In this document: positions 12,568-54,250 of the stretch, in pieces
Numbering within the stretch: position 1 is the first letter of the stretch
How the letters are laid out: each line of letters opens with the position of its first letter
DNA from: Escherichia phage inny
Length of the DNA stretch: 64,000 bases
Direction: 5' to 3' (one strand)
Sequence record: MN850601.1
Translations under genes and position numbers: made by a program
Notes under the pieces: model-generated
Seen by the model: only the letters and a program-made list of their open reading frames with translations
Database searches by the model: none
Told to the model about the DNA's origin: nothing

Positions 12568-12572
12568 AACAC

Positions 12573-13555: not shown

Positions 13556-13562
13556 ATATTTA

Positions 13563-13638: not shown

Positions 13639-13643
13639 AATTT

Positions 13644-13718: not shown

Positions 13719-13795
13719 GATAACACCATCCAAGGAGAATACTTGGTTAACTGTCAATAGCACATTGAGGCTTCTTACAGTGGTGTACTTATTAT

Positions 13796-13880
13796 GGCTA
13801 AGTGGTGGAATGGTATACACGATACGCTTAGAACGTATTGCCCCAAGGGATTGTGAGTTCGAGTCTCACCTTAGCTACCA
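13796..13880 (+). tRNA. tRNA-Leu (anticodon TAG), type II
   Basis: acceptor GGCTAAG/CTTAGCT, 3-bp D-stem GTG/CAC, anticodon arm ATACG-CTTAGAA-CGTAT, variable hairpin, T-arm GTGAG-TTCGAGT-CTCAC, A73, CCA. Confidence 0.85.
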
Positions 13881-13895
13881 AATTATTACAGGTTT

Positions 13896-13974
13896 CGCGG
13901 GATAGAGGAGTCTGGTCGTCCTCGCCAGTTTCATATGCTGGAGATCGTAGGTTCAAATCCTACTCCCGTTACCA
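13896..13974 (+). tRNA. tRNA-Met/Ile2-type (anticodon CAT), second copy, unpaired 1-72
   Basis: acceptor CGCGGGA/TCCCGTT with C1 opposite U72, D-arm GAGG-(11 nt)-CCTC, anticodon arm CCAGT-TTCATAT-GCTGG, T-arm GTAGG-TTCAAAT-CCTAC, A73, CCA. Confidence 0.65.
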
Positions 13975-14032
13975 ATAAATACCTCCCTTCTGGTGTAATG
14001 ATTAAATTACATTGACACTTCAAGGAACTCAT

Positions 14033-14115
14033 AGCCGGGTAGATTTAAAAGAGTATGGTACTCAATATGGCTCCAAACCATAGATCAGGGGGTTCGATTC
14101 CTCACCTTGCTGCCA
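14033..14115 (+). tRNA. tRNA-Trp-like (anticodon CCA) with expanded D region
   Basis: anticodon arm TATGG-CTCCAAA-CCATA, T-loop TTCGATT, G73, CCA; best acceptor AGCCGGG/CCTTGCT has one C-U mismatch and leaves about 9 extra nt before the D-stem GAGT/ACTC. Confidence 0.4.
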
Positions 14116-14120
14116 ATTAT

Positions 14121-14196
14121 TGTGGTATCGTACAGATGGTTAGTACACTCGACCGATAATCGAGAAACAACGGTTCGACTCCGTTTACCACGACCA
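14121..14196 (+). tRNA. tRNA-Ile (anticodon GAT)
   Basis: acceptor TGTGGTA/TACCACG, D-arm GTAC-AGATGGTTA-GTAC, anticodon arm CTCGA-CCGATAA-TCGAG (C33), T-arm AACGG-TTCGACT-CCGTT, A73, CCA. Confidence 0.75.
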
Positions 14197-37259: not shown

Positions 37260-39335
37260 ATGAAACAGGCTATTTTTACTGTAACTCGAAATACGAGAGT
37301 AAATGCCAGTTCATTCAGCTATAAGACCGTCGATGGAACGGCGGTCGCTGGTAGAGATTATGTAGCTAAACAGGGAACAGTAACGTTCCCTTCTGATGCA
37401 GATTCTGTTACTGTAGTAGTTGATGTATATGAACGTCCGGCAAACTCTTTAGATCTTTATTTTACTCTTGAGATTACTAGCATAAGTCAAAATAACATGA
37501 TGATCAATGAAGAAATTCGTTGTGTTATTACGACTAATCAATCGAATACAACCCCGCTAACTTGGCCTGTTGTGAAGTCTAGAATGTTTGATCCTAAGTT
37601 TTGGACAATAGATTCTCAAGCAACAGAGAGTTGTTCTATTATCTCTAATGGTGATTCTTTCACAGCAAGAATGGTTAATAGGACAGTGGCTGGTCTTGCT
37701 GGGATTATTTGGTCAACTTACGATAAATATGATCACAAAGGATTAGGCTACCAAGAACATTCTGACTTAAGTAAAGAGAAACTTTGGTTTAAAATGGAAC
37801 TTAGTCAAGGTGTTCCTGGATTAAAAGAAGAAAAATTATTGCCATCCTTAACAGTGACACTGAAGGATGAAACAGTTCATTATGTATCTCTAAACTTTTA
37901 TGCAGAAGAAGTTTCAGAGGACGGTAAAACAGCAATAATCAAATTAGATTTCTCAAATTTAAAATCTGGGCCAGAAAATGATATTGTTGTTGACACTACA
38001 CAGATAGATAACATGTTCTTCTCCTTGATTTCCGCAAGGTATCAAGAAATTGAAGATGTTATACCAGTAGACAATATAGATCTTTCCTTTAAGTTTACCA
38101 TACTAGAGCCTGATACTGGTTACAGTATGATGAATATGGGTAATTTAAATGTTCCGGCGCACACCATAAGAATGTGTACATCTTATGATGATATGTATAA
38201 CCTAACCCCAGAGCGAGTTATTTCTAACACCTATAGATTAGGTTATAGAGATATGATTAACCATTATAATGGTATGTCACACTATTATCAATTTAGTTGG
38301 GATGCTGGATCTAATAAATGGGCTTTGAACAGAACAGAATATTTAAACCCAGCAACAGAAGCCTGGTTTGATAATTTCCACGCTAATGCAAAAGCTATGG
38401 GCTACACAGTAATGAACTCCTTAAGTTTTGAAATTATGAGTACAGTGTGTCCTGTAGAATGGGTACAACATACTTGGAATGATGATCTGGCTGCTACAGG
38501 TTATGAGCCACCAAGTTATGTTTTATCTCCTTCAATTGATGAAGGGATGAATTATTTACAAGGTGTAATAAATAAGATAGCTTCTATATCCGCTGCTAAT
38601 GATCTTCCGGTTATTATTCAGGTTGGTGAACCGTGGTGGTGGTATAACACAGCTACCAATCTACCGTGTATTTATGATTATGCAACCAAAGTTGCATTTA
38701 ATAATGAAACTGGGTTATATGCACAAGATGTTGGTACAGTTAAGAATTATAAAACTGGTACACCATATGATGAATATTATGCATTCCTATCTAAAACATT
38801 AGGACTGCGTGTTGCTAAATTTGCAACAGATACTAAATTAGCCTATCCTGGAGCTAAAGTTACATTATTACCATTTGTGCCATCCATTTTAGGTAATGGT
38901 ATGATGGAGTTTGTTAACTTCCCTAAAGATTATTATATCCCAGAAAACTTTGACTTTTATTGTTCAGAATGTTATGACTGGTTGTTGGAAGGTCAGATGG
39001 AAAGATCTTTCGACGCTATTAAAATACCTAATGAGCAACTAGGTTTTAGTTATGATAAGATACATTATCTTGCAGGGTTTGTTCCAGATGCAACTCTAGC
39101 ACCATTATATGGCTTTGATCCTGAATCAGACTACAGAACATATTTGTGGAAAATGATTATAGGTAATATCGTATTGAACGACCAGAAGTTTGTTGGTTTG
39201 TATCAATACATATGGGCTTATCCACAAATTATGGCAGATTCATTAACTGTTCTTAATTCAAAATCCCAAGTTTTTTATATGGGTAACGTACCTCTGAATG
39301 TCTTTTTACAAGATACAGTATATGTTTCTTCTTAA
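37260..39335 (+). CDS. tail/baseplate structural protein (691 aa)
   Basis: ORF track. Confidence 0.5.
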   Translation: MKQAIFTVTRNTRVNASSFSYKTVDGTAVAGRDYVAKQGTVTFPSDADSVTVVVDVYERPANSLDLYFTLEITSISQNNMMINEEIRCVITTNQSNTTPLTWPVVKSRMFDPKFWTIDSQATESCSIISNGDSFTARMVNRTVAGLAGIIWSTYDKYDHKGLGYQEHSDLSKEKLWFKMELSQGVPGLKEEKLLPSLTVTLKDETVHYVSLNFYAEEVSEDGKTAIIKLDFSNLKSGPENDIVVDTTQIDNMFFSLISARYQEIEDVIPVDNIDLSFKFTILEPDTGYSMMNMGNLNVPAHTIRMCTSYDDMYNLTPERVISNTYRLGYRDMINHYNGMSHYYQFSWDAGSNKWALNRTEYLNPATEAWFDNFHANAKAMGYTVMNSLSFEIMSTVCPVEWVQHTWNDDLAATGYEPPSYVLSPSIDEGMNYLQGVINKIASISAANDLPVIIQVGEPWWWYNTATNLPCIYDYATKVAFNNETGLYAQDVGTVKNYKTGTPYDEYYAFLSKTLGLRVAKFATDTKLAYPGAKVTLLPFVPSILGNGMMEFVNFPKDYYIPENFDFYCSECYDWLLEGQMERSFDAIKIPNEQLGFSYDKIHYLAGFVPDATLAPLYGFDPESDYRTYLWKMIIGNIVLNDQKFVGLYQYIWAYPQIMADSLTVLNSKSQVFYMGNVPLNVFLQDTVYVSS

Positions 39336-39346: not shown

Positions 39347-39592
39347 ATGAGAAAATTTTTAATAGGTATGTTTTGTACATATCCTGATAATAAAGTCAGT
39401 TCTACTAAAGTTTGGAATGCTATTGGTATGATTGTTATGTCCAGTATGTTTATTTATTTGGGAATTGATAAAGAAATTCCTGAGTGGATGGGCTGGGCTT
39501 TTGTTTTTATGATCACACCATCCAGACTAATGAAGAATTTAATAGATTTACGTTGGGGCAGATCACCTGCCCCTGATAAGGAGGATAACTAA
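39347..39592 (+). CDS. small membrane protein (81 aa)
   Basis: ORF track; hydrophobic segments VWNAIGMIVMSSMFIYLGI and WMGWAFVFMITP. Confidence 0.45.
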   Translation: MRKFLIGMFCTYPDNKVSSTKVWNAIGMIVMSSMFIYLGIDKEIPEWMGWAFVFMITPSRLMKNLIDLRWGRSPAPDKEDN

Positions 39593-41079
39593 TGGCAGAT
39601 TATGGTTTAACAGATGCTGGTTTTGTCATTCCAACGTTTGATGATATTTTAAATAATTATATGACAGCATTGAAAAACACTTTTGGTGCAGATACAGCTA
39701 CATCTGAAGATACTGTCTTTGGTCAACTGTTTCGTATTATTGCATATACAGATTACACCCTTTGGGAAGGTATGCAAGGTGTTTACAATACCCAAACCTT
39801 AGATGGTGCAGAAGGTATTTACCTTGATGAAATTTTCTCTAAGAGAGGTTTTTATCGTAAGGCAGCTTCTGCTGGTAGTGGTTATGCTTATGTTAAATCT
39901 AACAATAAGGCAGCTTGGACTTATGAACTAAGCACCGATGTTTATTTTAATGCCGATAACGATTTGACATATTATGTCAGTGCACCAACAATGTTGAATG
40001 CTAAGATTGGAGCATATACCATTTCTAAAGCAAACGCAACAGCTTCTGGTGAAACTTCTATTACTTTCTACATTCAAAGTGCTATTGACGGTGGTCTTAA
40101 CAGTAAAACACTAAGTCCTAGCAATACAAACTTTATTTTAGATCTCACGAATTTCATTAAAGCTAACGTATCAACAACAGATCGTGCTTTAGTATGGAAT
40201 GATGCTAGTAATGTTTACATGGGTTATAATCCAGAAGATAATGTTAACCCAATAGGTCTAGTAACACCAGTGAAATTTTACGCATCTATTGCAATTGGTA
40301 CAAAATGGAGTGAAATTCCAGTTACGTGTTCAGACGTTGGTTATAATCCAGTAGGTACAGAAAGTATTACAGGTATTTCTTCAACGTTTACAGGCTTTTT
40401 AGATACAGGTAACTTCTACCCATTCTCTCCAGGTACGGATGTTGAAACAGATGCAGAATTCCGTTCTCGTTTCAATGATAATATGGATGAAGCTAATGCT
40501 GCTACTCGTGCTGCTATTGTTAAAGCTCTGCTACTGACAGATGGTGTGACAAAGGTTAAGATTTATGATAACCCTACATTACATGATCAGGAACATGCTC
40601 CAGCTATGACATTCCAGACTATTGTGTATGGCGGTACAGCAGAAGAAGTTGCACAGGTTATTTATAATACTAAGCCTATTAACACCTTAACCTATGGTAC
40701 AACAGCAATTACTATTATAACAGAAGACGGCGGTCAAGAAGTAATTCGTTTTTCTCCTGGTGACAATGCTGAATATTCACTTAGACTAGTATATCAAACT
40801 GGCAATGGTAGTGTGTTAAGTACAACAGAAAGAGAAAATATTGTTTCTGCTCTTTCAAATCTACAGGCTTATTTTGAGCTAGGGTCAACAGTAACTAACG
40901 ATCAGATAAAAGGTGTAATTTATTCTGCACTTGCGTTCGGACGCTTGACTTCTCTCCGTGTTTATGTTAAACTTAATACTGAGGATGACAGTAAATATAA
41001 TGAGGGAGATATCACTCCAGCGTACAATGTTGTACCATCCTTTGACCTTGATAATATTTCCTACGAGTACGGAGTCTAA
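39592..41079 (+). CDS. putative baseplate wedge protein (495 aa)
   Basis: ORF track; AGGAGG SD; tail module. Confidence 0.4.
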   Translation: MADYGLTDAGFVIPTFDDILNNYMTALKNTFGADTATSEDTVFGQLFRIIAYTDYTLWEGMQGVYNTQTLDGAEGIYLDEIFSKRGFYRKAASAGSGYAYVKSNNKAAWTYELSTDVYFNADNDLTYYVSAPTMLNAKIGAYTISKANATASGETSITFYIQSAIDGGLNSKTLSPSNTNFILDLTNFIKANVSTTDRALVWNDASNVYMGYNPEDNVNPIGLVTPVKFYASIAIGTKWSEIPVTCSDVGYNPVGTESITGISSTFTGFLDTGNFYPFSPGTDVETDAEFRSRFNDNMDEANAATRAAIVKALLLTDGVTKVKIYDNPTLHDQEHAPAMTFQTIVYGGTAEEVAQVIYNTKPINTLTYGTTAITIITEDGGQEVIRFSPGDNAEYSLRLVYQTGNGSVLSTTERENIVSALSNLQAYFELGSTVTNDQIKGVIYSALAFGRLTSLRVYVKLNTEDDSKYNEGDITPAYNVVPSFDLDNISYEYGV

Positions 41080-41081
41080 AA

Positions 41082-41711
41082 ATGGCAGTGAGTGTTGACC
41101 ATGTGACAACGTGGGATAGTATCAATGAAGATGTTAAAGACCTACTGATTGAAGATTTTAAATCTTCTCCGAACATTGTCAAACTACTCTATATCATTTC
41201 TAGCGAAAAACAAAAGATAGATCAGGCAATGATCTATCTTGCCAAACACCGCTTGATCTCTACTGCAACTGGTAAGTATTTAGATCTTATTGGTGAAGAG
41301 ATGGGGATGGAAAGAAATGGTGCTACAGATGAAGAGTATCGTACAATATTAAAAATCAGGGCTTATCGTGTTGCGTCTTCTGGTACGCGAGATGATATCA
41401 TTGATATGTTCGCTCGTTTTACAGGAACAGAAAAAGAAACGATCAATACATACGTTGGATTAAATAAAACATTCGACGTATTCTTTTATAATTTGTGTCT
41501 ACAATCCGATCAGGCAGTAGCACAGTTACTTAACGTTTTCCCGATCCTAAGTAGTTATCGCTTAGGTGCGAAAGCGGGTTCAGCCTTTGGTTTCACTTCC
41601 TATTATGCCACAACTCCACCTCATGGCATAGGTGGTTTAGGTTCTCTTTACACAGAGGCTGAAGGAGATGATACAGGGCGAATGACTATGCTGATAGCTC
41701 AAATAGAATAA
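41082..41711 (+). CDS. putative baseplate/tail protein (209 aa)
   Basis: ORF track. Confidence 0.4.
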   Translation: MAVSVDHVTTWDSINEDVKDLLIEDFKSSPNIVKLLYIISSEKQKIDQAMIYLAKHRLISTATGKYLDLIGEEMGMERNGATDEEYRTILKIRAYRVASSGTRDDIIDMFARFTGTEKETINTYVGLNKTFDVFFYNLCLQSDQAVAQLLNVFPILSSYRLGAKAGSAFGFTSYYATTPPHGIGGLGSLYTEAEGDDTGRMTMLIAQIE

Positions 41712-41724
41712 GGAGTTACCCTTA

Positions 41725-42705
41725 ATGGCAAAGCCACAATACTACCCTGACTGGGCGACACAAACAGTAACCCTCCCAGGAACGGGAAACACAAACAAGA
41801 TTAGACCAAAAGAAACCATCCGTAATGTTGGTATGGACTTTGGTCAGATTATGACTTGTGAAGAAATGAACTGGATCTTAAACAATATTGGGTCTTGGAT
41901 TCGCTATATGCAAGATGAATTCTTCCCAACATTGCCTACTACATATCTTCCTATAGTCGGTACTAAAATTACAATGGCAGGTGATGCTACAGGTGAAGTT
42001 ACATGGAATGGTAATGCTGCTGTAACATTATCTATTCAAGTAGTAGATAACAGTCATAATCACTTATCAGCTAACATTACAGACGCAACATCGAACCAAG
42101 TTGTAGGAAATGTCCTTGTTAAGCGTGATAATGGTGGTGCTATCTATGCAGGTGATATTTACACTTGTGGTACAGGTGCTACAGATCCTGCAACATTATT
42201 TTTTAGAAACTATAATGGACAAACAGTAGGCAATATGTCTTCTGAACCAGGTGCAGGTGGTCAACTCTATATTTATAGAATAAATCCATCTACTGGAGGA
42301 ACATCTTGTGGAGTCCGTTTGTATGATGCAGGTTATGTTTTAATAGACAATCCTCGTTCTAATTCTGGTCAAGATACTGGCAATGGTAATGCTCTTGTAA
42401 GATTAGATTATCTTAACTCAAGACTAAACTCATTGCAAAGTACACTGCAAAATAATATTAACAACGTTAATAGCAACTTGCAAGGCCAAATTAATAACAT
42501 TAACAACAGAGTTTCTTCTGTTGTGTCTTCTATCCGTCTAGGTACACGTATTAAAGCTGGTGTATCTGAATCTCCTTTCTATGCTGGTCACGTGATCACA
42601 GGTTGGGGTTTTGGTGATAAGAAAGAACTTCGTGGTGCTTGGTATTGGTCTGCTCCGCTACAATATTACATTAATGGTAGCTGGATAACAGTAACCAACG
42701 TTTAG
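41725..42705 (+). CDS. putative tail fibre protein with Asn-rich coiled coil (326 aa)
   Basis: ORF track; NSRLNSLQSTLQNNINNVNSNLQGQINNINNRVSSV heptad segment. Confidence 0.45.
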   Translation: MAKPQYYPDWATQTVTLPGTGNTNKIRPKETIRNVGMDFGQIMTCEEMNWILNNIGSWIRYMQDEFFPTLPTTYLPIVGTKITMAGDATGEVTWNGNAAVTLSIQVVDNSHNHLSANITDATSNQVVGNVLVKRDNGGAIYAGDIYTCGTGATDPATLFFRNYNGQTVGNMSSEPGAGGQLYIYRINPSTGGTSCGVRLYDAGYVLIDNPRSNSGQDTGNGNALVRLDYLNSRLNSLQSTLQNNINNVNSNLQGQINNINNRVSSVVSSIRLGTRIKAGVSESPFYAGHVITGWGFGDKKELRGAWYWSAPLQYYINGSWITVTNV

Positions 42706-42717
42706 TAAGGAGAACAC

Positions 42718-43269
42718 ATGAAAAAAGATGTTATTTACACTGGCTTTGAACTATATCAACCAGAATTGACAGAAGAAAATGTCATCTATCTTTCAATAGG
42801 TGCTGGTTTTCTTAAAGATAAAGATGGTAATGATTGGTACGAAATTCAGAAATATTTATCCAAAAATTACCCTGATGCCTATTTCTTAACTCTAGATCAC
42901 AACAATGTAGTTGTTGCAGCTACGAAAGATGTTTCTACATATTTTCCCGCTGGTCTTACTGTTCTTGTAACATACAATGTTCCAGATAAAATAGAAGAAG
43001 AAAGCAACCTAGGGTCGTGGAGATATGACAATGGTAAGTTTATTTCTCATAATGGGTTTGCAATAGAAGATGCCAACCTTAAAATGGAAAAAGAATTAAC
43101 TTGGGCCACAAATCAAATATCTGCAATTCAAGATTTAGAGGAATTACAAGGTTTATCTGAAGAACAAAAAGATTGGTTAGGAAAAGTTAAACTCTATCGT
43201 GCAACATTAATTCAAATTAACGTTGAAGATGCACCTAATATAACTTGGCCTACAAGACCTAAGAAATAG
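42718..43269 (+). CDS. hypothetical tail-associated protein (183 aa)
   Basis: ORF track. Confidence 0.4.
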   Translation: MKKDVIYTGFELYQPELTEENVIYLSIGAGFLKDKDGNDWYEIQKYLSKNYPDAYFLTLDHNNVVVAATKDVSTYFPAGLTVLVTYNVPDKIEEESNLGSWRYDNGKFISHNGFAIEDANLKMEKELTWATNQISAIQDLEELQGLSEEQKDWLGKVKLYRATLIQINVEDAPNITWPTRPKK

Positions 43270-43278
43270 GGGCAATGT

Positions 43279-43620
43279 ATGGAGCTAACAGAAGTATGGG
43301 ATATCGCTAAAGAGGCGATTATCCCTCTTATTGGCGTAATCTGGGTGGTCTTCAAACAGAAGATAGATGATATGGCAAGTGATTTGGATAAAATGGAAGA
43401 CAAATACCGCGAACTAGAAAAGAAGTTGGTGTTTGTTGAATCCACTTATGCTACCAAAGCAGAACTTGCTCAAATGCTTAACCAGATCAACTCTACATTA
43501 ATGGCAAATAATACTGCCTTAGAACAGAAGATTGAAAAAATAATGGATTTAAAAAATGCTCCTGTTCAATTAATGCTAGAGGAGATTACAAAGCGCACAC
43601 AAAGTAAGGACAAAAATTAA
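43279..43620 (+). CDS. hypothetical coiled-coil protein (113 aa)
   Basis: ORF track. Confidence 0.4.
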   Translation: MELTEVWDIAKEAIIPLIGVIWVVFKQKIDDMASDLDKMEDKYRELEKKLVFVESTYATKAELAQMLNQINSTLMANNTALEQKIEKIMDLKNAPVQLMLEEITKRTQSKDKN

Positions 43621-46034
43621 TGGCGAATTTTCCAACATATCCTGCTACGACACTAGAACAAGGTGTTGATCTGGTTATATTCTCGTCTAACCAGATGCAT
43701 GATGTTATTAATGGGGATGCTACAGCAACTGTAGAAACCGAAACAGGTTTAATACCTACACTGCGTAAAGCACTTGTTGATAACTTCTTCTTTAAGAGTC
43801 CTGTTGCTTGGTCAGCAGGATCAACTGAAACTGTATTTAACCAGTTACGTTATTTTGAAAACGGTATCTTGAGTGGGTACTATTATGCCCCATCTGCCAC
43901 TACTGCGAACCCTGTACCTATGCAGGGCACACCTGTAGGGGACAGTAACTGGACTCTGTACGCTCTTAAAACTGAACAGTTAGCTTCAGATGTGTATCCT
44001 TGGTATTTTAAAGGTGCTACAGGATATGAAACAGAAATCAGTCCTCCTTATATCTTTGATAATGCTATTGTCACCATTAACGGTGTAATTCAGATTCAAG
44101 GTGAAGCATTTACTATCAAAGATAGTAAAATTATTCTGGCAGAACCATTAGGTTTAGATCCGTCTACTGGTCTACCTAACAAATTGTTTGCTTTTATTGG
44201 TAAAACAACAGCCTCTACTTCTTACGTAGAGAAAAACCTTTTGTCATCTACCACTGGTGCAGCAATGGTTGGTCTTCCATCTGGAGGCAACCTGTTACAA
44301 GCTCAATACTTTGTAACGCCTGAGCAGTTTGGTGCAATTGGTGATGGAGTTACCGATGATACTCAAGCAATTTTAAAAACTATTACTTTCGCTAACACGA
44401 ATAACATTCAAGTACGTGCAGATAAGAATTATAGATTCACAAGCTCAATTGCTATGTCTGGTATTCGTTGGTATGGTGGTACATTCACTGGTAACGGTGG
44501 AACAATGATTTCTACTGTGTCCTGTTGGATGGAAAACGTTCGCTTTGAAAAATGTTATGTTAAGATGTTAGGTGGTGATTGCCGATTCTATCGTAATATC
44601 TTCTCCAACGCAACATCTACAGCAGCATTCTTAATGCAAGCAATGACAAGTGAAGGTACGTTGGACTTCAGTTACAACGAAATGTATGGTTGTAAATATG
44701 CGATCCTGCAACAAGGTACTGGAGAAGTAATGACCTACGGGCGTTACTCTAACAACTATATTCACGATATTAAAGGTGATGCTATTGAACTTAACGTAGT
44801 TCAAAAACACTACACTGAAGGTTTGATTATCGAGAATAACCACATTGCTAACGTAGATGCTTCTGGACAAGGGGCAAACTGGGGTATTGGTATTGGTGTA
44901 GCAGGTAGTGGCCCATATGGTGTTGATGTTCCTGATTCACAATATGTACGTAACTTCAGTATCGTTGGGAATAGGGTTTACAATTGCCGTCAATGTTTAC
45001 ACGTTGAAATGGGTAAAAACTTCACAATACGTGATAATGAAGTTTATCCTAACACAGCAGTTTCAACAGGTACAGGTTTAACTACTTGTGGTGTTGCATT
45101 ATACGGATGCCAAGATTTTGAAGTTGATGGTTTAACTGGTTATCTGCTTAATGATCCGTCTGTTTCAACACGCATGGTCTTTATTGATTGGGGTGTTAAC
45201 AGTGGAAGATATGCGGGGCCACCAATTAACTTTACAATTAAGAATTTGGATATTCCAGAATCCTCAATTGAGATTGCAACCTCTGGATCAGATGCTTGGG
45301 AAAACTCTACAATTGTTAGTAATATCAATTGTAATGTTTTTAAATGGCGTGGGCTACCATCTAGCTCTACTTTTAATAATATTCGTTGCCGTAGTATTGA
45401 CTTTATTGGTCAACACGGAAGCGGAGAAGGAAGTGGTGGCGGTTTCTATACTCGCAGCCAATTCACGTATATGAAGTGGGTAGGATGTACAGCACTTAGC
45501 GGAGATGAAACAACAGTTTCTTTTGCTAAAATCTACACTGATCGTTGCGATCAGGTTGGAAATAACTTTGGTGTTCCAACTGCTGTTGATGGTACAGGTC
45601 ATCGTGGGCCAGTTTTAACTACTATTTCTGAACAATATTTTACAGCTTATGATGAATTCCCAGGTGGGCGTGAATTCCCTACTGGAACAGTTATTCATTG
45701 TGCAAGCGGTAAAAAACATGTTGTTACAGTAGGTGGTGCTTTCTTTAGTGCCAACGAGAAAATAAAAGCAACTGTTACAGGTCAAACCTATCTACAGTCT
45801 AATGCTTTAAACTGGGCTAGTAATGGCTACGCTAAAGCAGCAGGTACTAAAATTGTTATTCCAGGTGCAGGTGCAAATGGCGGCGATCTTGTGACAACTA
45901 TAGCACGTGCTACATACGTGACAAATAGTTTGTACACAATAGATATTGCAGATCCAATTGTAACACCTACAGCAGAGAATACACAAATTAAAGCTCTGAA
46001 TCCTGTTACTTTTGTTACTGTCAACAATGCTTAA
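43620..46034 (+). CDS. tailspike-like protein with parallel beta-helix (pectate-lyase-fold) repeats
   Basis: 804 aa; repeated N/G/I-rich beta-helix rungs (IIENNHIANVDASGQG, FSIVGNRVYNCRQCLHVEMGKNFTIRDNEVYPN); followed by terminator. Confidence 0.55.
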   Translation: MANFPTYPATTLEQGVDLVIFSSNQMHDVINGDATATVETETGLIPTLRKALVDNFFFKSPVAWSAGSTETVFNQLRYFENGILSGYYYAPSATTANPVPMQGTPVGDSNWTLYALKTEQLASDVYPWYFKGATGYETEISPPYIFDNAIVTINGVIQIQGEAFTIKDSKIILAEPLGLDPSTGLPNKLFAFIGKTTASTSYVEKNLLSSTTGAAMVGLPSGGNLLQAQYFVTPEQFGAIGDGVTDDTQAILKTITFANTNNIQVRADKNYRFTSSIAMSGIRWYGGTFTGNGGTMISTVSCWMENVRFEKCYVKMLGGDCRFYRNIFSNATSTAAFLMQAMTSEGTLDFSYNEMYGCKYAILQQGTGEVMTYGRYSNNYIHDIKGDAIELNVVQKHYTEGLIIENNHIANVDASGQGANWGIGIGVAGSGPYGVDVPDSQYVRNFSIVGNRVYNCRQCLHVEMGKNFTIRDNEVYPNTAVSTGTGLTTCGVALYGCQDFEVDGLTGYLLNDPSVSTRMVFIDWGVNSGRYAGPPINFTIKNLDIPESSIEIATSGSDAWENSTIVSNINCNVFKWRGLPSSSTFNNIRCRSIDFIGQHGSGEGSGGGFYTRSQFTYMKWVGCTALSGDETTVSFAKIYTDRCDQVGNNFGVPTAVDGTGHRGPVLTTISEQYFTAYDEFPGGREFPTGTVIHCASGKKHVVTVGGAFFSANEKIKATVTGQTYLQSNALNWASNGYAKAAGTKIVIPGAGANGGDLVTTIARATYVTNSLYTIDIADPIVTPTAENTQIKALNPVTFVTVNNA

Positions 46035-46036
46035 TT

Positions 46037-46060
46037 AAAAAGGGGCGAAAGCCCCTTTAT
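46037..46060 (+). terminator. intrinsic terminator (AGGGGC-GAAA-GCCCCT + T-run)
   Basis: GC hairpin after tailspike stop. Confidence 0.65.
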
Positions 46061-46075
46061 AAAAGGAGTAGTAAA

Positions 46076-48037
46076 GTGATTTTAACACGTCCAAATAGTG
46101 CCATTGCAGACATGGTAGAGTCTCGCTATAGAAAGCGTAGAAGTTTTGCAAGTGGTTTTACCTTAAGAGATGCTCGTGAAGCATTGCTCTTTGAAACTGA
46201 CGGTAACTACTATCAGTGGAAAGGTTCTCTACCTAAAGTTGTACCTGCTAACTCTACTCCTACATCTACTGGAGGGATTTCAGATACAGCTTGGAAAAAT
46301 GTGGGTAATGCAGATGACATTGCTCAAATAGAATCAGAATTAGATGCTATTGAAGCTGAAATTGAAGATCTTAGAGAATCCATTCCAGAAGCTGGTAAAT
46401 CAGCTTACCAGATTGCCGTAGACAATGGTTTCCAAGGTACTGAGACAGACTGGTTGGCTTCTTTAAAAGGTGATCCAGGTGCTCCATTAAAGCTGCTAGG
46501 GACGCTATCTAATACCAACCAATTACCTACAACTGGAAACAATGCAGGAGATGCATGGATTGTAGGCGAGAATATGTATGCTTGGGATGGTACTGCTTGG
46601 AGAAAAGTAAACTCACAGGGGCCAGAAGGTAAATCAGCTTATCAAGTTTGGCTTGCAGCAGGAAACCAAGGTACAGAACTAGATTATCTTGCTTCAATTA
46701 AAGGTGATAAAGGGGAGCCTGGCCCAGAGGGGCCACAAGGTGTGCCAGGTAACAATGCTAATGGTTTTGATTACCAAGGTGCAGCTAATTCCGTTTCAGA
46801 TCTTCCTTCTGCATCTCCTGGAAACACATCTCAAGCATGGAGTATTGGTACATATCTATACGTGTCAAACGGTGTAGAATGGATCAATATGGGTGCTATA
46901 GTGGGGCCAAAAGGAGATAAAGGCGACAAAGGAGATAAGGGTAACACTGGTGATTCAGCTTATCAAGTCTGGTTAAATGCTGGTAACGTTGGTACTATTG
47001 ACGAATATATTGCCTCTCTGAAAGGAGAAAAAGGTGATAAGGGAGACAAGGGTGATCAAGGTGAGCAGGGTATACAAGGCTTGACGGGGCCAACTGGTGC
47101 AGGGTTGACCATTATTGATATTCTGACTGACACTTCTGAACTACCAGGAACTGGAGAAGATGGTGATGGTTATCTGATCAATAATGAACTTTGGGTTTGG
47201 TTGCAAGGAGCCACACAGTGGACAAATGTTGGTCGTTTAGCTGGTACTCCAATCACTGCAAAAGGACACGTTGCATCTGCAAGTGCACTTCCTCCTACAT
47301 CCAATTACGGTGATGCTTATCTGACGGAAGATACAGGTCATCTTTACATTTACACCTATGATGAACAAACTCAAACTGCTGAATATGTAGATATGGGTAG
47401 TTTGAAAGGTGATAAGGGTGAGAAAGGTGACGCTGGTACTAACGGTACGGATGGCGCAACTTGGATTGTTAAAACAACAGATCCAATCTCTAGGGATGGT
47501 AAACAAGGGGATTATGCCTTTAATATCTCCACTGGCGAGGTGTTCTTAAAAACATCTGCAACTGTCTGGACTTCTCAAGGTACACTACCTAGCATCACAG
47601 ATGCACCTAGTGACGGTAAAATCTATGCTCGTAAAGATGGAGCATGGGAAGAACTCACTAGTTCTGTAGATGGTCAAGATATAGTTCCAACAAAAGTAAC
47701 AACTAATTTTATAGAGGTTACAGCATACACCAACAACTCTGTTACAGGGGACTGGACACCTCCAGGAACACATAACATGAATGTGTTGAATCTTACTGGT
47801 AACTCTACTATAAAAGCATGGCCTGGTGTCGAAGATAGCACAAAACCTAAACCATTCTCTGCAATAGTTTATCTTATCCAAGATGCCACTGGGGGTCGTA
47901 CTGTTACTTTAGACCCATCTTACAAAGTAATTGGTTCTAGTGATATTAATACAGATCCTAACGGAGTAACAATACTACAACTAACATATTGTGGTGTTGG
48001 TGATTACGTGGATGCTATTGTTGCTAAACGCACATAA
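46076..48037 (+). CDS. tail fibre protein with collagen-like Gly-X-Y tracts
   Basis: 653 aa; GTG start behind AAGGAG; tracts GPKGDKGDKGDKGNTGD and KGEKGDKGDKGDQGEQGIQGLTGPTG; internal repeats SAYQ(I/V)..(N/D)..G(T/N)...(Y/W)LAS(L/I)KG. Confidence 0.6.
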   Translation: MILTRPNSAIADMVESRYRKRRSFASGFTLRDAREALLFETDGNYYQWKGSLPKVVPANSTPTSTGGISDTAWKNVGNADDIAQIESELDAIEAEIEDLRESIPEAGKSAYQIAVDNGFQGTETDWLASLKGDPGAPLKLLGTLSNTNQLPTTGNNAGDAWIVGENMYAWDGTAWRKVNSQGPEGKSAYQVWLAAGNQGTELDYLASIKGDKGEPGPEGPQGVPGNNANGFDYQGAANSVSDLPSASPGNTSQAWSIGTYLYVSNGVEWINMGAIVGPKGDKGDKGDKGNTGDSAYQVWLNAGNVGTIDEYIASLKGEKGDKGDKGDQGEQGIQGLTGPTGAGLTIIDILTDTSELPGTGEDGDGYLINNELWVWLQGATQWTNVGRLAGTPITAKGHVASASALPPTSNYGDAYLTEDTGHLYIYTYDEQTQTAEYVDMGSLKGDKGEKGDAGTNGTDGATWIVKTTDPISRDGKQGDYAFNISTGEVFLKTSATVWTSQGTLPSITDAPSDGKIYARKDGAWEELTSSVDGQDIVPTKVTTNFIEVTAYTNNSVTGDWTPPGTHNMNVLNLTGNSTIKAWPGVEDSTKPKPFSAIVYLIQDATGGRTVTLDPSYKVIGSSDINTDPNGVTILQLTYCGVGDYVDAIVAKRT

Positions 48038-48040
48038 TCA

Positions 48041-48066
48041 AAGCCCCTTCGGGGGCTTATTGTTTA
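48041..48066 (+). terminator. intrinsic terminator (AGCCCC-TTCG-GGGGCT + T-run)
   Basis: hairpin is the exact reverse complement of the one at 403..420. Confidence 0.65.
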
Positions 48067-48076
48067 AGGAGATTAA

Positions 48077-50896
48077 ATGTATCCTATTCCTTTATTTATG
48101 TCAACAACATCAGCTTCAGTAGTAACAGCTACATCTATAACTACTTCCTCTATTGGTATTGCAATAGTTGGTGGTAAAAAACAACTGACATACACAGTTA
48201 CACCGGAAGATGGTGCATTATTTGATATAGCTTTTTCATCTTCAGATAATACCAAAATGGTTATAGATAATAGTGGTATGATGGAGTTTGTTGCCGAAGG
48301 TGGTTTTGATGCAATAATGACAGCTAAAAATAATTTAGGTGCTGTCTTAACTGATCAATCTGGTGGTTATGCTTCAGAATTAAGTGTGTACACTGAAAGT
48401 CTATCGGCTATGGATGTAGGCACTACTCAACAGTTGGTTGCTACAATCAGTCCAGAAGGTGCTAAAGACCTTCCAGATATGGTAATTACATACACCACAA
48501 CAGATCCAGAAGTAGCTACTGTAAGCCCTACAGGGTTAATAACTGCTCTTAAAGATGGCGGTTGCCGTATAGGTTGTACTGCAACGTATCAAGGAACAGT
48601 TGTGGCCTCTGATAGTTCTTATTTAGGTGTTAATGCTATTCCTGTTATTTCTAATGTAACAGCCGTGGCAAACAGCTATGGAGACGTTCGTGTTGCTTGG
48701 GATGTAACTGATCCTCTAGATGGTGATACTTATACTGTAGAAGTATTAGATTTAAGTAATAATAGTGTTCAGTGGACTACAACAACCACGAATACTCATG
48801 CTTACTTTGATATCTCTGACTCTATTCCTCTTTATGGGTTTGCTCCAACATACCTTAAAATTAGCGTTAAGAGCACCAAAGCAGCAGCCGTTATCTTTAA
48901 TAACTCAATAGCTACAGATGATTCGTTCATTAAAGAAGTTATTGTCTTTGCTGGACAAGATAACGTAAATGCACACTTTACAGAACTATCTGGTGCAAAT
49001 AAAGCAGCAATGGGTAGCACAACAGCCCGTAATGCATATGCTACGCAACGTGGTTTAGCAAATGCTGAAGTTCTTCCGTTAAATACAGCTTCTGGATCAT
49101 CAGCAGCAGATAAATATGCTGACGATAAAGCTGGAACAGGTACACCAGATAACTACTGGTATGATCTGGATAACACAGCAGATGGGCCATGCTTAACTAA
49201 CTTTATCACTAAAGTCACACCTTATGCAAGTAAGGTTAAAGCAATTATTTGGGGACAAGGTGAAAATGATGCTGTATCAGCATCTTCGACTGTTGCAGGT
49301 AGGTACAGTAACACTACACGTTACCATGATGCTACGATAGCTATCTTTGATAAGATGCGTACAATAGTTCCTGCTTCTCAAGCAAAAATTGTTTGGCAGA
49401 TCCTAGGACGTTCTTATTTATATGGTGTAGAAGTTAATGGTGTGGATTGGCAGAAGTACAGAAATGTACAAAGAACCATCTCTACAGCACGTGATGATGT
49501 TATCATTGGTTCTTGGGTAGATGGTGCTGAACGTTACAGTGGTTATGTTTATGAAGAAGGTATTGATGGTCGTATCCATTATATTTCTTCTGTATACCAA
49601 ACAGCAGCTACAAAACTTGCTAAATCAGCAGCAGACGGTACAGACTTAACATCAACGTCACCTGTTTGGGTTGATATGGCTGTTCCAACTGGAGCAACAG
49701 CTACTTCCCAACCTAATCAAGATACAATTTTAGCATGGGATGCTCAAGGCTATAGTAAACACTACTTCCGTAATATTAACGTCTTAACCGCATCTGTATT
49801 AACTGAACAAACGCTTAATACGAACAGTTATACGTTTACCTATGCAGATCAAGTAGAACAATATGGTTTTGCAGCAGGAACTACTATATTTGATGTTGCA
49901 TATTATGACGAAGCAAATGATGTGTTATCTCCTTTAGTACGTTTTAATGTTAACGTTACAGCAGGAACCGTAGAAGATAAACCTGTCGTGATGGACTATG
50001 ATTTGACGCAAGAAACTCTTCCATCAGATGTTAAGGTTAATGGTGGGAACTCTTTTGCTCGTGCTTCTGGAGATATACTTGTAGCCACTAACACCTTGGT
50101 TGCTCCGTTGGAGTATGTTGGTAATACCCCTGTAGGTAGACGTGTAACAGCTAACACAGCTTCACAAATTTTTGTCAACAACGCCTTAACAAGTGCAAGC
50201 CCGTGGGTAAAGACCAACTTAACTGTTGCAGCTTCATCTGATAAATCTCCGGCTGGAACTACTGCCAATGTATTCAAATTAACTCCGACTACAACCTCTG
50301 GTAGTCATATCTTAACTGCAACATATACTAACGCGTACAACATATCTGCCGGACGTAACTGGTCTGCCTCTGTTTTCTTGAAAGCAAACGGGATTACTAA
50401 GGCCAAACTAAGATTAAAAGCAGGAACTGAAGTTAATGAGGGTACTTTTGATTTAGCAGCAGGTACATTCACAGGAAGTGAAGCTAATATTATATCTATG
50501 GGCAACGGTTGGTATCGTGCTATTCTGCATAAAACAGGGATAGCCAAACAGTCCTTCATAAGTTTTGAAATAATTGCCTTGGATGCAACTGGTGCGGAGA
50601 TTTTCGCTGGAGATGGTACTAGTAACCTTGCAGTTTGGTTGCCACAGCTTGAAGGTGCTTCTACAGGAGAAACATCAAAAGCTGGATCGCCTTATGTCTG
50701 CACATATCCTGGAAATTTAGGAGGAGTATCCTTCACTATACCAAGGAACGGACATACTGGTGTGGATGTTTACTATTCCAACGGAGACGTTGTTCGTGAC
50801 GTATTCTCTGGTACGGCATCTACTTGGACAATAAACTACTCCAGTTTGTACGATTGGGGATCAGTCTTTATTACAGGTTTGAAATATTACGACTAA
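48077..50896 (+). CDS. tail fibre/receptor-binding protein with sialate-O-acetylesterase-like (SASA) domain
   Basis: 939 aa; AAGGAG SD; Thr/Ser-rich Ig-like N-terminal repeats; esterase-type motifs VFAGQDNVNAHF and IIWGQGENDA. Confidence 0.5.
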   Translation: MYPIPLFMSTTSASVVTATSITTSSIGIAIVGGKKQLTYTVTPEDGALFDIAFSSSDNTKMVIDNSGMMEFVAEGGFDAIMTAKNNLGAVLTDQSGGYASELSVYTESLSAMDVGTTQQLVATISPEGAKDLPDMVITYTTTDPEVATVSPTGLITALKDGGCRIGCTATYQGTVVASDSSYLGVNAIPVISNVTAVANSYGDVRVAWDVTDPLDGDTYTVEVLDLSNNSVQWTTTTTNTHAYFDISDSIPLYGFAPTYLKISVKSTKAAAVIFNNSIATDDSFIKEVIVFAGQDNVNAHFTELSGANKAAMGSTTARNAYATQRGLANAEVLPLNTASGSSAADKYADDKAGTGTPDNYWYDLDNTADGPCLTNFITKVTPYASKVKAIIWGQGENDAVSASSTVAGRYSNTTRYHDATIAIFDKMRTIVPASQAKIVWQILGRSYLYGVEVNGVDWQKYRNVQRTISTARDDVIIGSWVDGAERYSGYVYEEGIDGRIHYISSVYQTAATKLAKSAADGTDLTSTSPVWVDMAVPTGATATSQPNQDTILAWDAQGYSKHYFRNINVLTASVLTEQTLNTNSYTFTYADQVEQYGFAAGTTIFDVAYYDEANDVLSPLVRFNVNVTAGTVEDKPVVMDYDLTQETLPSDVKVNGGNSFARASGDILVATNTLVAPLEYVGNTPVGRRVTANTASQIFVNNALTSASPWVKTNLTVAASSDKSPAGTTANVFKLTPTTTSGSHILTATYTNAYNISAGRNWSASVFLKANGITKAKLRLKAGTEVNEGTFDLAAGTFTGSEANIISMGNGWYRAILHKTGIAKQSFISFEIIALDATGAEIFAGDGTSNLAVWLPQLEGASTGETSKAGSPYVCTYPGNLGGVSFTIPRNGHTGVDVYYSNGDVVRDVFSGTASTWTINYSSLYDWGSVFITGLKYYD

Positions 50897-50898
50897 TA

Positions 50899-50930
50899 AA
50901 AAAGGAGCCATTAGGCTCCTTTTCTTTTAT
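50899..50930. terminator. bidirectional terminator (AGGAGCC-ATTA-GGCTCCT flanked by A-run and T-run)
   Basis: sits between convergent plus-strand fibre gene and minus-strand genes. Confidence 0.7.
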
Positions 50931-50931: not shown

Positions 50932-51363
50932 TTAATCAGTGAAAATTACGCTTACATCTTCTTTAGAGAAGAGTTTATGATCTTCACCTTTTGTCTCAAG
51001 AGTTTCATACAGGTTAAGAAGTTCTGAAACATCTTTCTCTACCAGTTTCTTCAATGTTGCAATTTTCTGTTTGCGACTCTTAATACGTTCAGCTACAACC
51101 TTACGCTGGTATCCGGCAGTACGATAACCTGAGAAAGTTACACCAGTGAGACTTGCAGTTACAGGATCGTAGTGACGTTCAATCTGAAACTTATTAAAAG
51201 GTACAGCGTCATCACGAATAATCTTACCGCCATTACTTACCTGACGAAGACCAGTAACTTGTTCCAGTCGTGCCATAGAAATCTTTGGAGACAGACCAGA
51301 GTCCAGGTTCATACCGTTGTTAATCAGTGCTTTCAGGGTGATTTTGCTGTTCAGTGTACTCAT
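50932..51363 (-). CDS. hypothetical protein (143 aa)
   Basis: ORF track; ATG at 51363 behind GGAGGAA; overlaps methyltransferase stop. Confidence 0.5.
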   Translation of the reverse strand: MSTLNSKITLKALINNGMNLDSGLSPKISMARLEQVTGLRQVSNGGKIIRDDAVPFNKFQIERHYDPVTASLTGVTFSGYRTAGYQRKVVAERIKSRKQKIATLKKLVEKDVSELLNLYETLETKGEDHKLFSKEDVSVIFTD

Positions 51364-52051
51364 TTAGTCGTTCCTCCGCTTGCTTAAAAATATTTACATC
51401 GGCTTCACAGCCTAAGTATTCTCTACCTGTTAAAAGTGCCGCAACTTGTGTTGTTGCACTTCCAGAGAAGAAGTCTAAGACTACATCTCCTTCGTTGGTG
51501 TGTATATTAATAAGGTCACAAAACAAAGTCAAGTGTTTTTGTGTTGGATGAAAACGATCTGCTCCTTGATAGATAGGATACTCAAACACACCCTTATGGT
51601 AGGAAGCATTGAAGGTTGGCTTCGAACCTTTAACACAAACAATAGCCATCTCTTTAGCGTTACTAAGATAGTTAACACCACTGTTGATGGGTACAGGGTT
51701 TGTTTTAATCCATTCGATAGTACGGAACATACGAAAACCAAGCGGTTCAAGGATTTCACGTAGCTCCTGGATCTTCCAGATATCATACCAAACTATGCAA
51801 GTACCACCTTTTCTAAGCACCCTGTAGGCTTCTTTGAATACTTCTTTAAAATAAGGAATATCTACAACATCCCAATCACCGAAGTTGTAAGATACACGGA
51901 ATCTATCCGTATCTTTTCCAGTAGGCTCTCCAGACTGAAAATTTGTGTCACGAGAAATAGCATATGGTGGGTCAGTAAGAATCAAATCTACACTATTGCT
52001 TTCGAGGGTTTGCAGGTAGTTTAATGCAGTGTTGTTTACAAATTCGCTCAT
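51320..52051 (-). CDS. DNA methyltransferase (N6-adenine/N4-cytosine class, DPPY motif)
   Basis: 243 aa; motif IV LILTDPPYAIS preceding motif I VVLDFFSGSATT. Confidence 0.85.
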   Translation of the reverse strand: MSEFVNNTALNYLQTLESNSVDLILTDPPYAISRDTNFQSGEPTGKDTDRFRVSYNFGDWDVVDIPYFKEVFKEAYRVLRKGGTCIVWYDIWKIQELREILEPLGFRMFRTIEWIKTNPVPINSGVNYLSNAKEMAIVCVKGSKPTFNASYHKGVFEYPIYQGADRFHPTQKHLTLFCDLINIHTNEGDVVLDFFSGSATTQVAALLTGREYLGCEADVNIFKQAEERLNEYTEQQNHPESTD

Positions 52052-52070
52052 TATATCTCCTTCAAAGAAA

Positions 52071-52088
52071 AGGAGCCGTTAGGCTCCT
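52071..52088 (-). terminator. intrinsic terminator hairpin AGGAGCC-GTTA-GGCTCCT
   Basis: near-identical to hairpin at 50903..50920; A-run on plus strand gives U-tract for minus-strand transcripts ending after the SSB-like gene. Confidence 0.55.
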
Positions 52089-52111
52089 TATATTCACACA
52101 ATACTTAACTA

Positions 52112-53059
52112 TTAGAAACAGTGCAGGAAGTTTCGACCATACTGCAAACCAATAGGAGCAAATGGGATATCATCATCGAAATCTTGAACAACAGGTTCTG
52201 GTTCTTTCGGTGCTGGTTCTTTCTTCTCTACTTTTTTAGTTTCTTTCTTAACTTCTTGTACTGGGGTAGACATTCCACGGATAGCAGCAGCTACTTTATC
52301 AGACAAAGCAAGAACTTCACGAGCAGCTTCAATAATCTCTTCTGCCGTTACAGTTTTACCTGTATGATCACGACAAGCGTTAAGAATTGCGTGTCCAACT
52401 GAAGCACCAAGATCATAGTCAGTCACATCAACGCCACGATCTTTAGCAATTTCTGCTTTCAGAGTAACAGTTGCAGATTGTACCACACCAGCCAAGTCGA
52501 AAGCATCACCTTTCACACCAGCACGTAGAAGCTCCAGAGCGCCGTTTACAGCGTGTCCTGTTTCAATCCCTACGGTATCACGTTTTTTGTAGTTAGGCTT
52601 GCTACCTTCGTTATTAGATGGCTTATTTCCACCTTTTGAAGAAGATTGTGCTTGCTGAACACCTTCTGTTGAAAGAATAGTGATTTTACCTTTAGAGGAA
52701 TTGTAGTATGTTTTGCCATTCCATTCAGAAGGTTTAACATCCATAGTTAGTTCTACACCTTTTTCGATAGTAACCCACTTATCACCATCTTTAACTTGCA
52801 GGTTTTCATGTTCTGGGTGCAGTTTAACTTCACCTAGGCTAACCCAAACACCTTTATCATCAGCACCAGCACCTTTCTCTTTAATAAGCAGGGATGCTTT
52901 GTGAGTTGATTCAATTTTCTTATCTGGTTGACCTGCAACCTTAATATAAGAGACTTTCATTTCATCAAACTTATCCAGTTTGACATATTCAACGATACCT
53001 TCAGCCCAGAATGCTTCTTTTTTAGTACGACGGTCGATTTCAGAATTAATTACTGGCAT
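52112..53059 (-). CDS. putative single-stranded DNA-binding protein
   Basis: 315 aa; acidic DFDDDIPF motif (classic SSB tail) 15 residues from the C-terminus; Gly/Ser/Asn-rich linker; replication-module context. Confidence 0.5.
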   Translation of the reverse strand: MPVINSEIDRRTKKEAFWAEGIVEYVKLDKFDEMKVSYIKVAGQPDKKIESTHKASLLIKEKGAGADDKGVWVSLGEVKLHPEHENLQVKDGDKWVTIEKGVELTMDVKPSEWNGKTYYNSSKGKITILSTEGVQQAQSSSKGGNKPSNNEGSKPNYKKRDTVGIETGHAVNGALELLRAGVKGDAFDLAGVVQSATVTLKAEIAKDRGVDVTDYDLGASVGHAILNACRDHTGKTVTAEEIIEAAREVLALSDKVAAAIRGMSTPVQEVKKETKKVEKKEPAPKEPEPVVQDFDDDIPFAPIGLQYGRNFLHCF

Positions 53060-53075
53060 AAATTCTCCTCTATAA

Positions 53076-53474
53076 TTACATTACTTTAACACAAAACTCT
53101 CGTAAAAGAGTAGCGTCAGTTTCTTCCAACAGGTATTTACCAAGACCAATACCAAATCCTATTTCACCACTTTCGAAATGGAGGATTTGTATCTTTTCTC
53201 CACCAAGATTAATTACTTTTGCTTTTCCAGGATTATCCAAAACATCTCGTATTGTATCCTGTAGTAACATAAGCTCACGTTTTGTGATAGTGGTTTCAGA
53301 TATCTCTTTGTTTTCTACTCTCACTGTTAAACGATTGTATCCACCAAAGAGACATAGTATTTGAATAAAAAAGGTATTATCTTGAGGTTCAACATCTTTT
53401 TTGGTTAGCTCAAGACGATTAGTTTCTCTACTGTAGAACGTCTCGACTAAGATTTTAGAACGATTATCTGTCAT
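53076..53474 (-). CDS. hypothetical protein (132 aa)
   Basis: ORF track. Confidence 0.5.
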   Translation of the reverse strand: MTDNRSKILVETFYSRETNRLELTKKDVEPQDNTFFIQILCLFGGYNRLTVRVENKEISETTITKRELMLLQDTIRDVLDNPGKAKVINLGGEKIQILHFESGEIGFGIGLGKYLLEETDATLLREFCVKVM

Positions 53475-53517
53475 TCAAGTCCTCATAATAACACATAATT
53501 ATAATGTTTGTCAACAC

Positions 53518-54111
53518 TTAAATTTTAAATTCTTCATTGTTAAATGAATCCAGTGTACGTACTTCTGGTTCTTTGGGAATGAAAACGTCTTTTACAAAAC
53601 GGAACATAGGGAAACGTTCTGCCATTTTACGGACGTGTGCTTCTTTACCCGTGTATCGGTGATTAATAGTACAAATATTAGTTTTCAGTGCAAATTCAAA
53701 ATCTGGATGATATACGTAATTTTGACCATCCCAGTAACACAAGCAAATAGCTACATCAAAGTTCCATACGATTTCACTGCGTACACCTTCTTCCATGATC
53801 ATAAAGTTAAACTTAAGATCTTTATAGTATGCTTCAAATACCCATTTCAAATGTGGTAGTTCGGCATAAGTGTGTTCTGTTTGCTTAGTAAGTTGTTTAA
53901 CATTACGTGCACCAACACCCAACATCAAAAATTTCTCTACTAGTACGAGTGTATTGTGGTTAGGCATACGCAAGTAAATATCAATATCTTGCGCAGGTTT
54001 CTCTAATCGCCAGTCACGTACAGCGCCGCCAGCTACAATTGCAAACGGATCTACCAGTTGGCACATACGTAATACTTCTAAAGCTCGTACTTTTTGATCT
54101 TCAATATTCAT
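53518..54111 (-). CDS. Pol-beta-superfamily nucleotidyltransferase, CCA-adding-enzyme head-domain-like
   Basis: 197 aa; N-terminal IVAGGAVRDWRL...DIDIYL matches the GG(A/S)VRD...DxD motif of class II tRNA nucleotidyltransferases. Confidence 0.5.
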   Translation of the reverse strand: MNIEDQKVRALEVLRMCQLVDPFAIVAGGAVRDWRLEKPAQDIDIYLRMPNHNTLVLVEKFLMLGVGARNVKQLTKQTEHTYAELPHLKWVFEAYYKDLKFNFMIMEEGVRSEIVWNFDVAICLCYWDGQNYVYHPDFEFALKTNICTINHRYTGKEAHVRKMAERFPMFRFVKDVFIPKEPEVRTLDSFNNEEFKI

Positions 54112-54250
54112 ATTTTCTCCTATCTCTTATGGTCTTTGCGTTATTCTAGATGTTCAAACATCTAATTATGAAATGGTTTAAAAGTGCGGAACAACCTTGG
54201 CAATCACAGATTGTTCCACATAAAAACTCCTTATAAAACAATATGTTAGA

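Follow-up and report, generated by a model that had tools for sequence, protein, structure and literature searches.

A phi92 gp150-type colanidase tailspike gene in Escherichia phage inny

In a 64,000-nucleotide stretch of the Escherichia phage inny genome (sequence record MN850601.1; hereafter the window), we examine one open reading frame (ORF), at 43620-46034 on the plus strand, and conclude with a probability of about 0.93 that it is the gene for the colanidase tailspike of a phi92-like (Justusliebigvirus) myophage of E. coli and Salmonella. It belongs among the colanidases of the gp150/NST1 family, and the protein is already known in sequence, structure and activity. A first-pass annotation, made from the sequence alone, had proposed a candidate depolymerase tailspike with a parallel beta-helix, and the proposal holds: the product is an ortholog of phi92 gp150, an enzyme reported to hydrolyze colanic acid, with 801 of 804 residues identical. 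O-antigen, named there among the substrates of such tailspikes, has to give way to colanic acid, the M-antigen exopolysaccharide.

The discovery value of this assignment is small, as the crystal structure is deposited, the enzymology published and dozens of near-identical entries annotated as 'colanidase tailspike' or 'colanic acid degradation'. Its practical value is one of annotation, here of a phi92-like Justusliebigvirus lacking the K1/K92 endosialidase, and it singles out the gene by which such phages would get through the slime of colanic acid. This bears on phage therapy where Enterobacteriaceae are mucoid or form biofilms, and on the enzymatic production of colanic acid oligosaccharides.

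Identity and architecture of the tailspike

The ORF is present exactly as first described, on the plus strand, with an ATG start and a product of 804 amino acids (aa). The gene and the parts of its product are the following:

43606..43610, plus strand: ribosome-binding site AAGGA of the tailspike gene, read from the sequence and annotated at the same place in phi92
43620..46034, plus strand: coding sequence of the colanidase tailspike, 804 aa, phi92 gp150 ortholog (ORF list, identity, PHROG and PDB matches)
43620..44294, plus strand: N-terminal adaptor, residues ~1-225 (phage phiTE fiber match, shared N-termini, drop in model confidence)
44307..45599, plus strand: right-handed parallel beta-helix catalytic domain, residues ~230-660 (AlphaFold2, Foldseek, conservation)
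45729..45995, plus strand: Ig-like domain at the C-terminus, residues 704-792 (Pfam match to PF20745 TSP_Ig-like at E 2e-14, which exceeds the gathering score)

The alignment with phi92 gp150 (YP_009012482) is gap-free over equal lengths of 804 aa, and the two genes are 99.3% identical in nucleotide sequence. RefSeq annotates phi92 gp150 as 'colanic acid degradation; colanidase tailspike', and PHROG 6117 ('colanic acid degradation') matches the window protein at E 5e-270 over profile positions 98-710 of 711. Moreover, residues 180-804 are those of the chain in PDB entries 6E0V and 6E0W ('Bacteriophage Phi92 gp150') except for I282V, S528N and A711D, all of which fall outside the motifs that are invariant in an alignment of 31 homologs. 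Gene order is identical to that of phi92 gp144-gp151, with positions 39352-48666 collinear with phi92 gp144-gp152 at 98.7% identity, and in phi92 the tailspike, which has the same three-part architecture, is likewise encoded between the gp149 and gp151 orthologs. Membership in the gp150 type is thus borne out by sequence, fold, synteny and the conserved residues of the catalytic core.

Sequence conservation marks the ORF as no chance feature, because its DNA occurs at full length in 55 phage genome records at 95-99.6% identity and because an identical 804-aa protein is present in a public protein collection (P0001; a cluster of 180 members). The ATG shares one base with the TAA stop of an upstream 113-aa ORF (TAATG), and translational coupling to that ORF is therefore suggested. 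The upstream ORF (43279-43620) is the gp149 ortholog, assigned to PHROG 'lipoprotein' and weakly similar to Rz-like spanins, and sits between the gene for a tail fiber assembly protein and the tailspike gene. Two small ORFs that overlap the tailspike gene (45151-45474, plus strand; 45354-45602, minus strand) are treated as chance. Four to five records of ~146 kb with C. jejuni as the host, such as Campylobacter phage A150 (MG065639.1), also carry the tailspike gene, at ~98.8% protein identity; the Campylobacter host label looks doubtful, or else these look like co-isolated coliphages.

The beta-helix had first been read from rung signatures in the sequence. The fold was confirmed through structure, whereas sequence profiles gave sub-threshold hints only. 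In Pfam searches at default settings and at E<=10, no beta-helix family reached significance on the tailspike sequence. The hints lie at residues 236-296 (Pect-lyase_RHGA_epim, E 0.037; End_N_terminal, E 0.004); PF12708 reached 14.3 bits where the Pfam gathering threshold is 27 (E 0.037), and PF13229 was not reported by the Pfam search. Some relatives, 49-67% identical, do score above the Pfam threshold for Beta_helix or Pect-lyase_RHGA (P0017, P0004, P0041). The fold is shared, but the tailspike sequence is too divergent for the pectate-lyase-like and Beta_helix models.

Because Pfam profiles alone could not show a beta-helix, the fold was tested by structure, the check that the first-pass annotation had itself proposed, and the beta-helix is present. 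An AlphaFold2 model built from a 54-sequence alignment is nearly all beta, with a mean predicted local distance difference test (pLDDT) score of 86.6; pLDDT exceeds 90 across most of residues 230-650 and dips at 411-420, 511-520 and 611-620. The model superposes on 6E0V ('Apo crystal structure of the colanidase tailspike protein gp150'), which is also its best Foldseek match in the PDB (E 3e-85; target-normalized template modeling score 0.81). The Foldseek matches that follow are right-handed parallel beta-helix proteins only, among them the AlgE4 and AlgE6 epimerases, the CBA120 TSP1-4, Sf6, HK620 and Det7 tailspikes, and GH87 glucanases.

Comparison with other phage proteins shows the adaptor and the catalytic part as two modules that travel independently. 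The adaptor, which comprises a predicted helix (residues 12-24), a small beta domain and a linker, would be the baseplate-attachment module, and a low-confidence linker (pLDDT drop at residues 198-230) coincides with its boundary to the catalytic domain in the AlphaFold2 model. It shares 45-84% identity with the N-terminal parts of many proteins of 740-980 aa from phage contigs of ~140-150 kb; the rest of those proteins is unrelated (15-22%) and often of another beta-helix family. Elsewhere the catalytic module (30-59% identity) is fused to other N-termini, such as a P22-type head-binding domain (P0045, P0058) or the short N-termini of the jumbo Asteriusviruses, while in Phapecoctavirus (P0012-P0024) it is combined with a TSP1/gp66 domain and the same adaptor.

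Reported activity, likely catalytic residues and relatives

As cited in PMC13450770, Xu et al. (2025) describe gp150 as an enzyme that breaks down colanic acid, that hydrolyzes the beta-1,4 bond between glucose (Glc) and fucose (Fuc) and that is used for making colanic acid oligosaccharides. The first biochemically characterized colanidase was the NST1 enzyme HM214492; colanic acid shields mucoid cells against such phages as T7, a protection that is stripped away by a phage carrying a colanidase (PMC4179555). In a review, the colanidase of phi92 is said to open the path for the secondary spikes (PMC10975011).

Within the catalytic domain, three motifs stand out: GDAIELNV (386-393), NWGIGIG (420-426) and RQxxHxE (457-463). 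Together with D387 and E463 they are invariant or nearly so in the 31 homologs, whose identity in the catalytic region goes down to ~24%. E390 is kept in 30 of these 31, positions D383 and D439 are almost always acidic, and W421, R457 and H461 are retained as invariant or near-invariant residues. D387, E390 and E463, also conserved in host WcaM, are probably the carboxylates that do the catalysis or bind the substrate.

There is a uronic acid in colanic acid (PMC10975011), and the fold is common to lyases and epimerases, namely AlgE4 and AlgE6, an alginate epimerase/lyase, K5 lyase-type tailspikes and the RbmB lyase, all among the Foldseek matches. The protein might thus be a beta-helix polysaccharide lyase that breaks colanic acid by beta-elimination at its glucuronic acid instead of hydrolyzing it. 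We consider this very improbable: the hydrolysis reported, as far as the citing account goes (PMC13450770), is at the Glc-Fuc bond, which is not a uronate linkage. Furthermore, Pfam sequence searches (default and E<=10) found no lyase family, and the conserved D387, E390 and E463 are carboxylates typical of glycoside hydrolases. Lyases usually depend on Lys, Arg or His plus Ca2+. The 'pectate-lyase fold' of the first-pass annotation therefore applies to the fold alone and says nothing of the chemistry, the enzyme being reported as a hydrolase.

It could also be asked whether the protein is mainly a virion-attached colanic-acid binder, a primary receptor-binding protein for which colanic acid is the receptor and no barrier, with an enzymatic turnover that on non-mucoid hosts would be secondary or could be dispensed with. 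Isolation on non-mucoid K-12 is routine for Justusliebigviruses, which still keep the gene at 95-100% identity, and for another phage colanic acid is given as a proven receptor (PMC6390001). However, binding and cleavage are compatible in tailspikes, activity of gp150 is reported in the citing account (PMC13450770), and genome-wide screens give the NGR glycan, recognized via gp142, as the K-12 receptor for the genus. There is thus very little chance that binding is the protein's main role.

The colanidase reading extends to a set of relatives that share the catalytic family and differ in what is attached to it. With NST1 (HM214492; Firozi et al. 2010) the identity is 31% across 91% of residues 225-804 (E 6e-51), and NST1 together with the Bonnellvirus colanidases (J8-65, Lidtsur, mellemsur) has a homologous beta-helix at 31-34% identity (E 6e-51 to 1e-71). 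For these proteins degradation of colanic acid was shown experimentally; unlike the window tailspike, they are podovirus tailspikes with a different N-terminal adaptor. The same catalytic family is found in Asteriusvirus (PBECO4, 121Q; 58% identity), Seunavirus (4MG; 37%) and Phapecoctavirus (phAPEC8; 33%), whose colanic-acid-degrading proteins have N-terminal modules that differ from that of the window tailspike. Those of Phapecoctavirus, 1010-1060 aa long, also carry the N-terminal adaptor (70-83% identity) along with an additional TSP1/gp66-type domain. In contrast, the P22, Sf6, HK620, Det7 and CBA120 TSP1-4 tailspikes share the general fold and the strategy of a virion-borne depolymerase, but show only 9-12% identity in structural alignments and have other substrates and active sites. 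The likeness to O-antigen and capsule tailspikes is one of fold and not of family membership.

A further relative is encoded by the host. Residues 360-556 (44697-45287) are 32% identical to the core of E. coli K-12 WcaM over ~200 residues (E 1e-26), with the motifs GDAIE-NV, NWGIGIG-AGS and CRQ-HVE-GK common to both proteins. WcaM (b2043) is a 464-aa host protein without the phage adaptor or the C-terminal Ig-like domain; its gene is the last one in the host's colanic acid cluster, and its biochemical function is annotated as 'putative'. WcaM itself may be a host colanic acid glycanase, because it has this core and the invariant carboxylate motifs in common with the phage colanidase. A search of the literature at hand turned up no paper linking WcaM to colanidase or gp150. 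Membership of the tailspike in the WcaM family proper (TIGR04004/NF007517) was considered and rejected, as it scores 100.9 bits against an equivalog cutoff of 794.6 and aligns to WcaM positions 165-351 only.

Probable attachment to the virion and proposed mode of action

Residues 12-126 of the tailspike, in window 43620-43997, match at E 1e-18 residues 15-130 of a protein of 793 aa that is named 'putative tail fiber protein' in 9CUY, a model of the phiTE baseplate. The phiTE long tail fiber (LTF) is modeled for residues 14-171, and its N-terminal helices bundle with the sheath initiator's C-terminal helix. Given the coinciding residue ranges, we infer that the matched 9CUY chain is the phiTE LTF. 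Direct attachment of the colanidase to the baseplate appears the most likely arrangement, because its N-terminus is homologous to the baseplate-embedded end of the phiTE fiber.

Like other tailspikes, the protein would form a trimer, anchored to the periphery of the baseplate by its N-terminal ~225 residues. In Enterobacteriaceae, colanic acid makes up a slime layer that is induced through Rcs and that screens cells from phages. The central right-handed parallel beta-helix would act as a glycoside hydrolase that cuts the colanic acid backbone, as shown for a protein differing at 3 of 804 positions, and by depolymerizing this layer the virion would tunnel to the cell surface. There the other receptor-binding proteins would act, the gp142 ortholog on the NGR glycan and the gp147 short fibers on the outer membrane, with the latter triggering contraction.

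Several points weigh against a colanidase tailspike of this kind. The three substitutions separate the window protein from the gp150 that was crystallized and assayed, the bond specificity of gp150 is second-hand, known through a citing paper, and the catalytic residues are deduced from conservation only. Additionally, the category of PHROG 6117 is 'moron, auxiliary metabolic gene and host takeover' and not tail, and a 2026 cryo-electron microscopy study of phi92 was unable to fit the gp150 model to 'fiber II', a density of low resolution (PMC13450770). This PHROG category, the failure of the cryo-electron microscopy to place gp150 in the particle (PMC13450770) and the observation that free enzyme of a colanidase phage helps other phages (PMC4179555) could speak for a soluble, non-virion enzyme of the moron type, set free at lysis to strip colanic acid from neighboring cells, but this is the least credible explanation of all: the gene lies within the baseplate and fiber operon and appears translationally coupled to its upstream neighbor, the first 126 residues have their homolog in that end of the phiTE fiber which is embedded in the baseplate, the same adaptor is joined to many other beta-helix depolymerases in ~145-kb myophage contigs, and 'tailspike' is the name that the PDB depositors gave to gp150.

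For the colanidase tailspike attached to the baseplate, the phiTE homology of the N-terminus could help to assign the 'fiber II' of phi92. We put forward as a joint proposal, tentatively and at odds well short of even, that the colanidase is the 'fiber II' of phi92-like phages and that WcaM is an unrecognized colanic-acid glycanase of recent common origin with the phage colanidases. If the 'fiber II' reading were true, a mechanical link would run from the engagement of colanic acid to the trigger of contraction.

Gene neighborhood and differences from phi92

The tailspike gene is the first of three consecutive large ORFs, all on the plus strand, after the third of which the coding direction reverses. 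The two ORFs that follow (653 and 939 aa) had been described in the same way, and are listed here with the hairpins behind each of the three:

46035..46062, plus strand: GC-rich stem-loop directly after the tailspike stop (sequence, folding)
46076..48037, plus strand: 653-aa collagen-repeat tail fiber, gp151 ortholog (639 of 653 residues identical to phi92 gp151)
48041..48058, plus strand: terminator-like hairpin after the gp151 ortholog (scanner, folding)
48077..50896, plus strand: 939-aa ORF, intact form of phi92 gp152 plus gp153 (alignment, domains)
50900..50923, plus strand: terminator-like hairpin, strong and with a T-tract, where the rightward tail operon ends and meets leftward genes (scanner, z -4.5)

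All three ORFs had been called receptor-binding candidates. This fits the tailspike and would suit the gp151 ortholog, a credible fiber by its sequence, with a GTG start and an N-terminal domain of the TSP1/gp66 type (PF18668, E 4e-21). The 939-aa product has Big_2 Ig-like domains and a C-terminal GTA head-spike-fiber-like domain (NF048003, E 1e-18), along with a sub-threshold match to a SASA-type esterase (E 0.0085), and its counterpart in phage KMB37 is annotated as 'tail carbohydrate esterase'. Read by eye, it has GQDN where SASA esterases have GQSN, so that the nucleophile may be missing. For this third ORF a receptor-binding role is no more than plausible. In phi92 the corresponding genes gp152 and gp153 are split and shortened, without the 218 bp at window positions 48667-48884 and the last 938 bp (49961-50898).

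Each of the three ORFs had also been credited with its own terminator. Stable, GC-rich hairpins are indeed predicted after all three, with folding energies of -14.5, -13.1 and -15.4 kcal/mol (z -3.1, -1.8 and -4.5), but the first has no U-tract and was not called by the scanner: a terminator pattern scanner made no call after the tailspike ORF, and called only those after the second and third. The first stem-loop has the core GGGGC-GAAA-GCCCC (46039-46058) with the GNRA loop GAAA, is followed by UUUAUAAAA without a U-tract, and abuts GGAG (46065-46068), the ribosome-binding site of the gene that follows. Its role may be that of a weak terminator or of an element that stabilizes RNA, and only the third hairpin looks like a strong terminator.

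Over 24 kb (33000-57000), the window is 97.5-98.6% identical to and collinear with phiWec187, vB-Eco-KMB37, Paula, ALITA, alia and others, all members of the genus Justusliebigvirus (Stephanstirmvirinae), of which phi92 is the type. Unlike phi92, which has the gp143 endosialidase, phage inny lacks this gene, and position 39315 joins 39352 where phi92 has ~2.9 kb. Because gp143 is absent and the gp142 ortholog directly precedes the gp144 ortholog, phage inny should not, by its gene content, degrade K1/K92 polysialic acid capsules. The ORF at 37260-39335 was considered as a replacement of the phi92 endosialidase and rejected, as the alignment identifies it as the gp142 ortholog, with gp143 absent. 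This 691-aa protein has Calx-beta along with the N-terminal and TIM-barrel domains of the 'non-contractile tail sheath' type (NCTSP; Pfam E 1e-81), which agree with the homology to N4 gp65 reported for phi92 gp142. A 2026 preprint describes phi92 gp142, through its homology to N4 gp65, as the NGR-glycan-binding fiber of Vequintavirus and Justusliebigvirus.

A modular host-range region had been suggested for the three ORFs, and for the region as a whole this is apt. The colanidase gene, however, is conserved and not a variable cassette: its product ranks with the best-conserved receptor-binding proteins in the genus (PMC12210895), whose hypervariable site is the gp143 locus (PMC7552041).

Further from the tailspike gene, the genes at 50932-56830 on the minus strand converge on the tail operon and include the ortholog of the gp155 methyltransferase (51320-52051). 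Among them, an 859-aa ORF (54251-56830, minus strand) matches DNA polymerase; in some relatives (PaulScherrer, SD2) the polymerase is annotated as intein-containing, and the matches there break up into several pieces. Blocks of tRNA genes are common in ~145-kb myophages of this kind, and the window holds 15 tRNA genes at 11446-14196 on the plus strand (two each for Met, Leu and Ser, and one each for Lys, Tyr, Asn, Thr, Gly, Gln, Pro, Phe and Ile).

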